From Octopus sinensis (lineage: Eukaryota): DNA of 21,880 bases. The notes under the pieces are model-generated. The model was not told where the DNA came from. It did not search any database and was given only the letters and a program-made list of their open reading frames with translations. The DNA lies in the NCBI RefSeq assembly GCF_006345805.1, contig NW_021823567.1, forward strand, positions 1 to 21,880. Reading direction: 5' to 3'. The position numbers and the translations under genes are program-made. Shown here piece by piece: positions 4,523 through 15,767 of this stretch. How positions within the stretch are numbered: the first letter of the stretch is position 1; every line of letters begins with the position of its first letter.

Positions 4523-4732
4523 TTCGCCCAGTCAGCGCTTACCTAGAGATTAACAGCTGCAGCCGCAATGCTACACTTCAATGACATATACATTGTTTGT
4601 GGTTTGTAGATATTGACCGTTCCATAGATATAATAAGCCGAGCCGGATTCTTAGAAAAGGAGAGGAAAAGAGTTATATGTATGTGTATATTTAATACTTG
4701 ATACAGTCTAGCGTCGGTTAACCTTGATTAAA

Positions 4733-5120
4733 TGGATGGAAGCACTCCGTCGGTTACGACGATGAGGGTTCCGGTTGATCCGAATCAACGGAACAGCCTG
4801 CTCGTGAAATTAACGTGTAAGTGGCTGAGCACTCCACAGACACGTGTACCCTTAACGTAGTTCTCGGGGATATTCAGCGTGACACAGAGAGTGACAAGGC
4901 CGGCCCCTTGAAATACAGGTACAACAGAAACAGGAAGTAAGAGTGAGAGAAAGTTGTGGTGAAAGAGTACAGCAGGGATCACCACCATCCCCTGCCGGAG
5001 CCTCGTGGAGCTTTTAGGTGTTTTCGCTCAATAAACACTCACAACGCCCGGTCTGGGAATCGAAACCGCGTCCTATGACCGCGAGTCCGCTGCCCTAACC
5101 ACTGGGCCATTGCGCCTCCA
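4733..5120 (-). mobile_element. SINE B, full length
   Basis: Perfect 13-bp TSD aaccttgattaaa at 4720-4732 and 5121-5133. Confidence 0.95.
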
Positions 5121-5911: not shown

Positions 5912-6295
5912 GGAGGCGCAATGGCCCAGTGGTTAGGGCAGCGGACTCGCGGTCATAGGATCGCGGTTTCGATTCCCAGACCGGGCGTTGTGAGTGTTTA
6001 TTGAGCGAAAACACCTAAAAGCTCCACGAGGTTCCGGCAGGGGTTGGTGGTGATCCCTGCTGTACTCTTTCACCACAACTTTCTCTCACTCTTACTTCCT
6101 GTTTCTGTTGTACCTGTATTTCAAAGGGCCGGCCTTGTCACTCTCTGTGTCACGCTGAATATCCCCGAAAACTACGTTAAGGGTACACGTGTCTGTGGAG
6201 TGCTCAGCCACTTACACGTTAATTTCACGAGCAGGCTGTTCCGTTGATTCGGATCAACCGGAACCCTCATCGTCGTAACCGACGGAGTGTTTCCC
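5912..6295 (+). mobile_element. SINE B, full length
   Basis: TSD gtgggttgcgg at 5898-5908 and 6303-6313. Confidence 0.95.
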
Positions 6296-6477
6296 TTAGA
6301 GAGTGGGTTGCGGTAGAACGTTTAAGAAGCTGGCTATCCAATGTTTCTGTCTTACTTGAGTCCACGTTGCTGCACCTCGATGTTGAAAAGTGGTTGGTTG
6401 TGCTGGTTTGTTATTGTTATTGTGGTTGTTTTAGTCAAAGGTCGGCCCTGAATGAAAAACTTATAAAAGGTATTCTA

Positions 6478-9016: not shown

Positions 9017-9402
9017 GGAGGCGCAATGGCCCAGTGGTTAGGGCAGCGGACTCGCGGTCATAGGATCGCGGTTTCGATTCCCAGACCGGGCGTTGTGAGT
9101 GTTTATTGAGCGAAAACACCCAAAGCTCCACGAGGCTCCGGCACGGGATGGTGGTGATCCCTGCTGTACTCTTTCACCACAACTTTCTCTCACTCTTACT
9201 TCCTGTTTCGGTTGTACCTGTATTTCAAAGGGCCGGCCTTGTCACTCTCTGTGTCACGCTGAATATCCCCGAGAACTACGTTAAGGGTACACGTGTCTGT
9301 GGAGTGCTCAGCCACTTACACGTTAATTTCACGAGCAGGCTGTTCCGTTGATTCGGATCAACCGGAACCCACGTCGTCGTAACCGACGGAGTGCTTCCAT
9401 CC
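9017..9402 (+). mobile_element. SINE B, full length
   Basis: TSD attttcgttaag at 9006-9017 and 9403-9414. Confidence 0.95.
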
Positions 9403-9473
9403 ATTTTCGTTAAGTCATTTTATGTTTGTGGGTTTACCTTCTCTTACCGGATCGATAAAAAATAATTGGTAAA

Positions 9474-10048: not shown

Positions 10049-10493
10049 TTTTTTAAATAGTCAAATTAGCGTTAACATTAATATTTAACACAAGGTTATT
10101 AAGAAGTTAACTAGAGACAATTAGATGCCAAGAAAAAAAAAAAACAGTAATAAATAATTGCTAATACTATTTTCAGGGTTGGACTTGTCTGATACGTGAC
10201 TTTATCTCAAACTGTTTTGCAAGTAAAGAAGACTCCTTTTAACCCATCTAAAAATCACAAAAAACATTTGGGCGATGAAAATGTTGACACGTCAGAAAAG
10301 GGCTCCTCTGTGGTGAAACTGAATTATTGTTTTCGTTTTTACAGCAAGTACAGGAGACAATTTCGAACATGTTCCAGTTTATATAACCTCATCAGAGAAG
10401 CAAAATGTTTATTCTATTTACCGAAGTAGTGATGGTAGAATCACTAAATAAATGCACTAAATTATACATTAGCTGGTGTAGGCAAATAGAATC

Positions 10494-11077
10494 TGTAAGG
10501 AATATGTGAATATCTCCTCTTGCACTTTTGGGGTGCAAGTTGGTGCAATCACTTTCCGTTGCTTTTATATCCAGACTCTACCAGTCAAAGAAACACAAAA
10601 CGCAGACGTAAAAAATAGATATACTTTATTGTTTTATACCGGTGAGAAATCAGTGGTATATCTGATGTCCTTGGTTCTGGGCGCGCAAGGCTGAAAGTTA
10701 ATCGATTGTAATATTTACAATGTTCAGCTGCTAAAACAGAACGGGTCAAAATGGCGTCCAGAGGAAGAAGATGATGTCTGCAACAATCCAGGTTAAAGGC
10801 CTTTTGGTAAGGACTGCTAGAAGCAAGTTCGAACGGAGAGAAAATATGCGTGACCGTCTCCTTCAATCGCTGCCGTCCCAAGTCGCCGCTGCTGCTGCTA
10901 GCGGTCAAACGTTCTACGACCCCCTTGCCTCGCTAACTGTAGGCAATAGGGTTCTGCTTCCGGTGGTTCGCGCATGCGCGAGAGGGCCCTTCCTCTCTCT
11001 GCCTTGGTAAAGGCACCAACACGCGCGAAATAGAAAATGGACGGTGCGCGCGCGCGCACCGTTATAGGATCACTACA
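10494..11077 (-). repeat. 3' LTR (584 bp)
   Basis: tgtaagg...cactaca; adjacent to the PPT. Confidence 0.9.
10625..10630 (-). terminator. Putative AATAAA polyadenylation signal of the LTR
   Basis: tttatt on the + strand, also retained in the other LTR (12769-12774) within an otherwise diverged block. Confidence 0.6.
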
Positions 11078-11092
11078 AGGCTCCCCTCCAGT
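11078..11092 (-). other. Polypurine tract (plus-strand primer)
   Basis: Minus strand reads actGGAGGGGAGcct immediately before the TGT of the 3' LTR. Confidence 0.8.
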
Positions 11093-12604
11093 GCGTACGC
11101 ACGAAAGGAAACTTATTGTAGTGACTGCAAAACTCAAGGTGGACACCAGATAACCAAATAGCACACAATATAATAAAATGGCAAAATTTACAACATACAC
11201 AAGAAATTTACTAAAGGAAAAGGAGAAAAAAAAAAACTCAATGAGCAAAAATCAAGAGTGCATGCATGAAAGTGTATACGTCACAAAGTATAAACCCTTC
11301 CGCTGAAAGGAGCGGAGGGAAAGCAAAACTCACAGTCGAATGAACCTAGGCTACATTAAATCCAACTTCTCTAAAGGTAGTTGATCCTGCAAAATAGCAG
11401 TTAAATCAATTGCTGCAGGAGAGGAAATGGAATTGACAGAAGCTCGCTAGTAACACAAAAGGCAAAAGTGCAAACATGCTGGTGTGATGCGCGACACAGA
11501 TAATTTTCTCTGTTAATTACGTGACCAACAGTGGTCTAACAGGGAAAAATAATTACGCCTAAACATGGCGCAGCGCATGTGAACATCCGACGTCCTATGA
11601 GTCGGGAAAAAAACTAAGCTACCGCAAACGTGTTGCAAAAAACAAGGCAATACACGTGCGAAGCAAGGCGCATGAAATGCAATAGTGCTTGCCAGACCGA
11701 AAAACAGCAAATGAATATGCCAGTGGTTGAGCGATTATATGCCTCTTTCGTACAGGAACAAAAGTATGACATGCTGGCGCGTCATAATGGACAAACAACC
11801 CTCTCTATGTATACGTGACCGACCTAGGGTCTATAGAAATGAGGGGTGTCCACAAAAGGCAAATTCAGCATGGAAAAAAAACAAGCGAGAAAAGCATGTG
11901 TGACGTATGTATGTGAGAGAGAGCATTTATGTGTGTGTACGTGTGTGCGACAGAAATACATACAAGGTGAATGCGAGCAAAATATAAAAACAGCGCATAG
12001 AAAAAATGTCTCTCAAGGCTATTCCAGACAAGAGTTATTTTACCAGTCTCTAATAGCCTGATGCACAATAGCAGTTCGTTCTGTAACAGAATGTTGAGAT
12101 CACAAATGCAGATGCCGATTGGACACATATCGTGTAGCGGTTGTGGCTTCAATGCTGTGACAGGTTAACTGGAACAGAAGAAATCTCGTAGATAGACGGT
12201 GCTGTTTATCCTTGGTGTGCATATGCACATACAGCGTGCACGCTAAAGTTCCGCGAGTTGCTATGTACATCTTGTGGAGGTCGACGGTGTTGAAAGGCGA
12301 CGGTGGTGGAAGGCGACTGTAGTGGACTTGAGACAACATCGTTCTTAGTGATGATGGCGACGAAGATAACGACGACGTGAAGTAGAAAAACGACGATGGC
12401 GATGACGAAGGTGGAGAAAAGGCATCGAATATATGATGGCGTTCGTCATCATGGCTGTAGAATAAGAAAGAGGCTCCTTCTACAACTGTTTGTGGAGGCC
12501 GGAAACAAATCGTCGAAAGATGAATGCGTAGAGTTAAATCGTGTTCCGACTTCGCAGAAAAACTGGATTTCTTTGTTGTTAAGTGATCTCTGGTTTTAGA
12601 CCAG

Positions 12605-12625
12605 AATCACGTCGGGAGGTCACCA
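12605..12625 (-). other. Primer-binding site complementary to tRNA-Trp
   Basis: + strand aatcacgtcgggaggtcacca versus the eukaryotic tRNA-Trp 3' end aatcacgtcggggtcacca (2-nt insertion); 1 nt from the LTR edge. Confidence 0.85.
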
Positions 12626-12626
12626 G

Positions 12627-13222
12627 TGTAACGAACTTGTGTGAGTGAATATATCTTCTCTTGTACTTTCGGGGTACAAGAAAGCAATCACTAGCCGTTG
12701 CTTTAATAATCCAGATTCTCTACCAGTCAGAAACAACAAGACGCAGACGTAAAATATATATATACTACTTTATTCTCTTTCTTGGTAAGTAATAATAAGT
12801 GTGTTATCTGATGTCCTTGGTTCTGGGCGCGCAAGGCTGAAAGTTAATCGATTGTAATATTTACAATATTCAGCCGCTAAAACCAGAACGGGTTCAAGAT
12901 GGCGTCGAACAGGGAAGTTGAATGTGGTCGGCAACGCATTCGGCCGACTGCTGCTAGAATCAAGTCCTGACGGAGAGAGAATATACGTGACCGTTGCCTT
13001 CGATAGCCATGTCTCAAAGCCCCCGCTGACTGCTGCTAGCGGTCAAACGTTCTACGACCCCCTTGCCTCGCTAACTGCTACGTAGGCAATAGGGTTCTGC
13101 TTCCGGTGGTTCGCGCATGCGCGAGAGGGCCCTTCCTCTCTCTGCCTTGGTAAAGGCACCAACACGCGCGAAATAGAAAATGGACGGTGCGCGCGCGCGC
13201 GCACCGTTATAGGATCACTACA
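12627..13222 (-). repeat. 5' LTR (596 bp)
   Basis: tgtaacg...cactaca; adjacent to the PBS. Confidence 0.9.
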
Positions 13223-13288
13223 AATCGTTTAGAGAATATATAATACAGTCGCCATCCGTATGAAAAAAGTAATGTTAGTATTAACATG

Positions 13289-15470: not shown

Positions 15471-15767
15471 TATAAATTATGCAAATATACTTTCTGATAT
15501 AAATTATGCAAATATACTTTCTGATATAAATTATGCAAATATACTTTCTGATATAAATTATGCAAATATACTTTCTGATATAAATTATGCAAATATACTT
15601 TCTGATATAAATTATGCAAATATACTTTCTGATATAAATTATGCAAATATACTTTCTGATATAAATTATGCAAATATACTTTCTGATATAAATTATGCAA
15701 ATATACTTTCTGATATAAATTATGCAAATATACTTTCTGATATAAATTATGCAAATATACTTTCTGA
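15471..15767. repeat. Perfect minisatellite, 11 x 27 bp (tataaattatgcaaatatactttctga)
   Basis: Unit starts at 15471 + 27n up to 15741; no variants seen. Confidence 0.97.

Follow-up and report, generated by a model that had tools for sequence, protein, structure and literature searches.

Structure of the element

The window, by which we mean the whole stretch of DNA analysed (21,880 bp), is an entire unplaced contig of a 2.72-Gb genome and is rich in microsatellites and SINE-like repeats. It contains one LTR retrotransposon with two unlike LTRs (Table 1). The positions of the primer binding site (PBS, 12606-12625) and the purine tract (11078-11090) place the element on the minus strand, and the substitution-free block of 186 bp is therefore the start of both LTRs, that is, U3. 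The borders of U3, R and U5, for all LTR parts named, are predictions from sequence. LTR positions are counted along the 3' LTR, with position 1 at window position 11077.

Table 1. Features of the retrotransposon and its insertion site, in window coordinates
Feature	Positions	Strand	Remarks and basis
TSD AATC, left copy	10490..10493	.	sequence and empty-site contig in run X4
Whole element	10494-13222	-	total 2729 bp; LTRs 584 and 596 bp, interior 1549 bp
3' LTR, TG...CA, three-part mosaic	10494..11077	-	584 bp; sequence and lineage comparisons
3' LTR: putative end of R plus U5, from autonomous family H	10494..10658	-	lineage matches, block tree
3' LTR: AATAAA, likely polyadenylation signal (predicted)	10625..10630	-	sequence; 137 bp from LTR end
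3' LTR: conserved core, N subtype B to H switch interval	10659..10744	-	contains 63-bp block
3' LTR: putative left part of R, N subtype B	10745..10891	-	matches to B-type LTRs
3' LTR: putative U3, haplotype common to both LTRs	10892..11077	-	pairwise LTR alignment
Polypurine tract	11078..11090	-	sequence
Non-coding N-family interior, fine mosaic	11078..12626	-	1549 bp
pol remnant, 87% identical to family H	11278..11439	-	blastn and tblastn against an H copy
PBS for tRNA-Trp(CCA), carries 2-nt insertion	12606..12625	-	complementarity to tRNA-Trp 3' end
5' LTR, TG...CA	12627..13222	-	596 bp; LTR alignment
5' LTR: putative R-U5, N subtype A	12627..13029	-	matches to A-type copies, block tree
5' LTR: putative U3, inner edge within family-wide linkage gap	13030..13222	-	LTR alignment and linkage
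TSD AATC, right copy	13223..13226	.	sequence and empty-site contig in run X4

We use "N" for the non-autonomous family of the element and "H" for its autonomous partner family. The element is a young non-coding Ty3/gypsy derivative belonging to N. The longest stop-free frame of the interior is 168 aa and has no Pfam match. Sequences 91-96% identical to the interior occur at 39 other genomic places, and its nearest neighbours switch every 200 bp, indicating that the interior is shuffled. The PBS complements the 3' terminus of a tRNA-Trp(CCA) gene in the same genome, and the element carries a private deletion of 14 bp. The element is thus of a non-autonomous type that lacks coding capacity, keeps its cis signals and persists in many conserved copies; the N-type LTR/PBS junction pattern is found at 132 sites genome-wide. 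Among non-coding LTR elements, TRIMs have short LTRs and a total length under about 1 kb, and LARDs have a non-coding interior of several kb. We rejected the first class for LTRs of 584 and 596 bp in an element of 2729 bp, and the second for an interior of 1549 bp.

Family H was found through the last 165 bases of the 3' LTR. Its elements are about 5.7 kb long, with a gag-like frame plus reverse transcriptase, RNase H and integrase, and their LTR pairs are mostly less than 1% apart. The order of Pfam domains in pol (RVT_1, RT_RNaseH, Integrase_H2C2, rve) is that of Ty3/gypsy. The H interior of 4.5-4.6 kb is taken up by gag- and pol-length frames, and no separate env-like third frame of at least 150 aa was found past the pol region on the sense strand of seven H copies, so that the family is not errantivirus-like. 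Both N and H have the Ty3/gypsy structure of TG...CA LTRs, a tRNA PBS, a polypurine tract (PPT) and a short target duplication; the duplication is a perfect 4 bp in 47 of 50 and 50 of 56 two-LTR elements in two sets.

The two LTRs are a mosaic of three lineages

A preliminary description of this DNA had noted two substitution-free blocks in the LTRs amid heavily diverged sequence. Our alignment of 10494-11077 with 12627-13222 bears this out. The shorter block matches at 63 of 63 positions (10659-10721 versus 12805-12867), and the longer (10892-11077 versus 13030-13222) has 186 matches and 0 substitutions, with indels of 5 bp and 2 bp plus a 1-bp gap at the block edge. The remainder does carry many differences: pairwise, 26 substitutions in 160 aligned columns for 10494-10658 and 28 in 152 for 10722-10891. 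The 63-bp block, however, calls for a correction. Unrelated copies were compared over it in 3003 pairs, and 22% of these show no difference, so the block is uninformative, and we ruled it out as a special converted or copied patch in favour of ordinary family-wide conservation.

Outside this block the two LTRs have different affinities. Over LTR positions 1-186 (U3) the nearest other copies are L080 (1/191 differences) and L090 (3/189), and in both the same U3 runs on into B-type sequence. In the multiple alignment, the 3' LTR at positions 187-333 differs at 2/147 sites from five B-type LTRs and at 41/132 from its own 5' LTR, which itself differs at 2/137 from A-type copies. All copies are alike at positions 334-419. 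The last B-type site in the 3' LTR is at position 333 and the first clear H-type site at 420, and the interval in which N subtype B gives way to H is presumably the strand-transfer point. At positions 420-584 the same alignment gives 0/163 differences between the 3' LTR and H copies, against 47/162 from the 5' LTR, whose U5 is N-type. The 165 bp at the end of the 3' LTR are 100% identical to six other loci. Block trees of 29 selected LTRs place the 5' LTR with subtype A (support 100/99) and the end of the 3' LTR with H (100/100). Each diverged version thus exists elsewhere in the genome as a lineage of its own (A, B and H), a point that the earlier reading had proposed to test. The segments of the two LTRs come from these three lineages.

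The LTRs of the element are 9.8% divergent, versus 0.2-2% in most sister elements. At 69 of the 78 differences between them both alleles are present in other copies, and this together with the lineage matches indicates that the divergence was imported rather than accumulated. Conversion within an element has been described (PMC7251063), but the reading that the insertion is old, with LTRs driven apart by mutation and then partly re-homogenised in this way, is ruled out by the donor matches and retains next to no probability: the diverged blocks are 98-100% identical to other lineages, most differences are shared alleles, and the site is still polymorphic (see below).

Two properties of the junctions bear on how the segments were joined. 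Across 78 N LTRs, we correlated the distances in neighbouring 50-bp intervals on the two sides of a cut; the coefficient is about 0 for cuts at LTR positions 160-190 and 0.5-0.6 for those at 240-300. The U3/A junction at position 187 therefore lies where linkage is zero, a pattern that a transcription start would be expected to leave. H-type sequence extends to the last informative base, which lies 5 bp from the flank and leaves almost no homology for a later conversion.

We found no locus near 100% identity to either LTR or to the interior. No sibling carrying either LTR was found among the best 40 candidates scored per search, where the best others reached 94% and 89%, and no parent with an A-type R at its 5' end and a B-type R at its 3' end was found among the best 40 candidates scored per search.

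The target duplication is real and the insertion polymorphic

The element is flanked as a whole by AATC (10490-10493 and 13223-13226), as reported in the preliminary description, which allowed that the flanks might derive from two loci and the match be coincidental. One contig of 542 bp in the public sequencing run X4 passes directly from 10489 into 13223 and has AATC once; its shorter side is 68 letters, and four bases at the junction fit either flank. This contig holds the empty site of one locus. AATC is therefore a true target duplication, and the insertion is polymorphic.

It might still be supposed that assembly or polishing had joined pieces of different copies. The contig is unplaced and only 21,880 bp long, and the public runs consist of short contigs, none of which spans the whole element. 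With exact matching in four runs over 12890-13285, no contig among the matches listed crosses the right junction or the private 14-bp deletion, and run X2 has no exact cover at 12946-12987 among the matches listed. Nonetheless we consider an artefact improbable. Contigs in runs X1, X2 and X5 cross from the left flank into the H-type U5 end and follow it for 29 bases with no differences there, although this overlap is two letters below our 31-letter bridging rule and one of the runs may be the assembled sample. Both flanks belong to one locus by the X4 contig, and no second copy of the left flank was found in a search of the genome. Copies near 100% identity that could have supplied the LTRs or the interior are missing, the same pattern appears on chromosome-scale contigs, and mis-polishing should affect both inner LTR ends, not U5 alone.

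Asymmetry at the U5 end across the family

Differences between 5' and 3' LTRs are in excess at the U5 end throughout family N. We define a "tract" as a cluster of at least four differences between the two LTRs of one element within 40 bp. Eighty loci were fetched for a first set; 41 had two full LTRs, the rest being solo, truncated or duplicated, and with the window element and L129 the set numbers 43. A tract is present in 19 of the 43, reaching the U5 end in 15 of the 19 and starting in U3 in one. Among 32 elements found through the interior alone, 16 have a tract. Simulated uniform conversion from random copies gives tracts of which 13-40% reach the U5 end and 32-54% start in U3. Family H has tracts in two of eight elements, one of them in U3.

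A validation set was drawn from 70 unseen elements among 100 listed junctions of the 132. Pairs were obtained from 56, of which 50 have a perfect duplication. Twenty-two of these 50 carry a tract, and 16 of the 22 tracts reach the last 25 bp. Four of the 22 start before position 160 (L162, L163, L204 and L185), so that a strict prediction set beforehand, that no tract would lie in U3, failed; the p-value of this count runs from 0.12 to 0.0006 depending on the assumed tract length.

When the two sets are pooled, the last 60 bp contain at least four differences in 34 of 93 elements and the first 60 bp do so in 3 of 93, and a U3 tract is found in 5 of the 41 tract-bearing elements, compared with the simulated 32-54%. 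The asymmetry seen in the window element is thus shared by other full elements, as the preliminary description had thought worth checking, and this polarity disfavours its suggestion of patchy gene conversion at random positions. Between elements the U5 end differs by 14.0% and the U3 end by 9.4%, which does not account for 34 versus 3. For both ends of 32 of the 34 asymmetric elements, some other copy is more similar than the partner end, if often still several differences away. Since the U5 end is the most variable part and rich in CAC/CTC, some short tracts may reflect local slippage or misalignment. Ectopic conversion after insertion, from genomic donors, would be expected to give tracts that are spread along the LTR and accumulate with age. 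Neither is seen: the number of differences in the last 60 bp is uncorrelated (rho -0.02) with the number in U3, a crude proxy for age that is noisy and narrow in range.

Which of the two LTRs is the foreign one was less easily read. Linkage to the leader points one way in 11 of 17 elements, a comparison that has no power, given that the interior is shuffled. Linkage to the upstream LTR body, computed without L185 and the window element (W), gives 19 versus 13 (p = 0.38). When the elements are split post hoc by tract length the result fits (p = 0.009), yet it is fragile, as L186 changes sides with the comparison interval used. The direction is plain only in hybrids of N by H.

Origin of the unlike LTRs

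Transfer of the first strand can run between co-packaged RNAs, and both LTRs then take the U5 of the donor, according to the parts of two accounts cited here (PMC6894440, PMC6088434). For that reason an intermolecular first transfer cannot by itself give unlike U5 regions. We think it probable that the element was born with unlike LTRs, the R-U5 of its 3' LTR coming from a co-packaged RNA and that of its 5' LTR from the end of its own RNA. The particle would have held the N RNA of the element together with an RNA of family H. Minus-strand synthesis would have been primed on the H RNA, copying H U5 and part of R, and an early jump inside the conserved core to the N RNA's 3' end would have produced a 3' LTR composed of U3, B-type R and H-type R-U5. 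The minus strand would then have copied the unprimed A-type U5 and R of the N RNA itself, stopping at the 5' end of that RNA close to position 187; the outcome would be the same if another short minus strand had started on the N RNA and been incorporated. Plus strong-stop DNA would have paired with the end of the minus strand through R-U5, supplying U3 only, and the mismatched 5' LTR would have been resolved towards the minus strand after integration. On this scheme the minus strand would hold a second, independent copy of R-U5, and two unlike RNAs would yield a 5' LTR mismatched in R-U5 and never in U3. The N parent would itself need unlike LTRs, with A-type R at the 5' end and B-type R at the 3' end, unless a third RNA was involved.

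The earlier proposal of a recombinant between co-packaged RNAs therefore stands as the best reading, with the correction that the lineages are three rather than two and that one belongs to a different, autonomous family. Its other proposal, of a family that heritably keeps unlike R/U5 regions, survives in part: a fixed family keeping both versions was not seen among the best 40 candidates per search (best others 94% and 89%), and passage of the unlike state through one generation would be required by the best model.

Hybrids between N and H are informative in this respect. In the window element as in L129, the 3' LTR ends in H-type U5, and the U5 next to the N primer site is N-type. L129 is H from the last 55 bp before the PPT through the 3' LTR, has an N interior and PBS, and its 5' LTR is H except for an N-type end of about 55 bp; one two-RNA event explains it. 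The standard outcome, an H-type U5 beside an N primer site, has a single match genome-wide (L048, over the last ~13 bp only), versus 132 N-type junctions. The reciprocal arrangement, an N-type U5 end before an H primer site, has 0 matches, and no N element with H-type U5 in both LTRs was found. The pattern of N U3 with H-type sequence has two other matches, each a solo LTR that is N-type at its ends and contains an H patch. Unlike R regions do occur in other elements (L061, L032, L031 and L185). L032 is otherwise an N element, and its 5' LTR (L150) has an H-type patch at positions 190-234, absent from its 3' LTR, that begins at the presumed transcription start.

We regard as unlikely the alternative that the element was born with identical LTRs of U3, B and H type and that an A-type donor, whether a genomic copy or cDNA of the family, later converted its 5' LTR over a stretch reaching from position 187 to within the interior. 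One tract anchored in the PBS and leader would be enough, no discordant parent is needed, and LTR conversion between elements is documented in plants, as summarized in PMC7251063. Because minus-strand cDNA includes R-U5 but lacks U3, cDNA donors, the leading candidates here, would leave a comparable polarity, and four validation tracts do lie in U3. With genomic donors, however, conversion at the beginning of U3 in the 3' LTR should be roughly as frequent as at the end of U5 in the 5' LTR; the counts are 3 and 34 of 93. The tracts do not increase with the age proxy, the required starting state (H-type U5 in both LTRs of an N element) is the one that was not found, and the element is young and still polymorphic.

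Less likely again is that the LTRs were unlike at birth through an intermolecular second transfer, in which plus strong-stop DNA moved between two separately made minus strands and each LTR thus stems from its own molecule. Such a transfer has been proposed for HIV-1 (PMC5651808, Fig. 4B), and L185, whose LTRs are wholly different with 79 differences including U3 and an intact GATC duplication, is as it predicts. It also predicts differences in U3, but the LTRs of the window element have the same rare U3 haplotype (0/186); a single particle would have needed two N RNAs with that U3 and one H RNA. Short PBS-anchored tracts are left unexplained.

Extended to this animal gypsy clan, birth from two RNAs would mean that 5' and 3' R-U5 are routinely copied from different RNAs, that pairs are often unlike at birth, and that the 5' R-U5 is inherited in cis, making the asymmetry heritable for generations. 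This generalization is a serious possibility which we advance tentatively, at slightly less than even confidence.

Comparison with known systems

Co-packaging and LTR swapping are known phenomena, as are this type of element and the transfer model from yeast. In soybean, Du et al. (2010) reportedly observed LTR swapping between autonomous and non-autonomous partners, in work about the formation of subfamilies. To judge by its title, that case resembles ours in that a non-autonomous family gains LTR parts of its autonomous partner; it differs in that it reportedly concerns subfamily formation and not unlike LTRs within one insertion.

The nearest mechanistic precedent is the PPT-primer-recycling model for Ty1 and Ty3 (Lauermann and Boeke 1994, 1997), as outlined in PMC5371799. 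In that outline the tRNA does not serve as template for the PBS, and plus strong-stop DNA finds its pairing partner in the R and U5 sequences with which the minus strand ends at its 3' side, giving a product with repeated U3-R-U5. The likeness would be that here too the PBS may not be reset by the tRNA, and that pairing through R-U5, for which we have a putative genomic footprint, implies a minus strand that copies a second R-U5. The portion of the Ty1/Ty3 account cited does not discuss unlike LTRs, whereas ours would be a footprint in natural animal gypsy insertions, between families and in about a third of copies.

For HIV-1, Cappy et al. 2017 (PMC5651808) describe an intermolecular second strand transfer in which the LTRs of one provirus come from two RNAs, with U3/R breakpoints in the next generation. 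The window element likewise seems to combine LTRs from two RNAs in one insertion; in the HIV-1 account, as far as cited, the LTRs differ along their full length and their unlikeness was deduced rather than seen, whereas here U3 is common and R-U5 alone differs. Only L185 fits the HIV-1 pattern. Co-packaged members of ONSEN/COPIA78 and of Ty1 recombine, with breakpoints in R, mosaic LTRs and interiors, and a rare three-parent copy, in the passages cited from PMC5668417 and PMC6894440. Mosaic LTRs with R breakpoints, a mosaic interior and contributions from more than two parents are features in common with our case, as pairwise co-packaging would be, but those products are described, in the same passages, with two identical LTRs, and the LTRs of the window element are unlike. 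Gene conversion among LTRs biases LTR dating, as stated in the cited part of PMC7251063, and there as here LTR divergence does not track age alone. That source, so far as cited, assumes identity at insertion and places conversion later; here the bias would arise at birth and would inflate ages. Among the titles and abstracts searched, none describes natural insertions whose LTRs are frequently mismatched in a U5-anchored manner that spares U3; prior reports may exist.

Implications for LTR dating

The dating of insertions from their LTRs rests on identity at insertion. A single element such as this one would be a curiosity, but since the polarity extends across the family, both the origin of the 5' R-U5 and that dating assumption become directly testable. 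If mismatches are present from birth, dating should be confined to U3, and outlying LTR pairs that have usually been blamed on conversion or misassembly may instead record the course of reverse transcription. If the routine copying of R-U5 from different RNAs proves true, identity at insertion fails for R-U5, and the tracts would be natural, genome-scale evidence in animals for the plus-strand transfer of yeast Ty1/Ty3. An excess at the U5 end would be a cheap genomic test, in any long-read assembly, for R-U5-mediated plus-strand transfer family by family. The locus also catches a non-autonomous family exchanging LTR parts with an autonomous one.

Primer sites and other observations

Of 102 primer sites, 47 match the C run of tRNA-Trp and 55 differ, and the 2-nt PBS insertion of the window element is common to 22 of the 102 copies. 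The primer sites thus look uncorrected by the tRNA, which fits the Ty1/Ty3 pathway; recurrent slippage is an alternative. Primer sites of H (L114-L121) match tRNA-Trp over at most 10-12 bases and those of N over up to 18. At G000:C6:69.79-69.89 Mb the pattern for the 3' end of tRNA-Trp has 16 clustered matches. The last 13-35 bases of N LTRs are CAC/CTC-rich and differ in almost all copies; the same bases are nearly constant in H. This end is where minus-strand synthesis starts, and error-prone initiation may possibly be responsible.

Several loci have unusual structures. L056 (188-5102) is a three-LTR tandem N element with one target duplication, in which the 5' and middle LTRs have a common U5 end and primer site and the 3' LTR differs. 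At L138 (3163-3247) an inverted piece of U5 end and primer site directly follows an H-type LTR. L087, L154/L155 and L219/L220 are elements repeated with identical flanks, and represent segmental duplications or assembly duplicates.

Two further repeats occur in the window. At 15471-15767, adjoining a SINE-like repeat, a 27-bp AT-rich unit is present in 11 copies that are 100% identical. A repeat of 280-330 bp occurs four times, at 1629-1916, 4730-5070, 5962-6297 and 9122-9406; the copies are 95-98% alike, lie in both orientations and belong to a young dispersed family.
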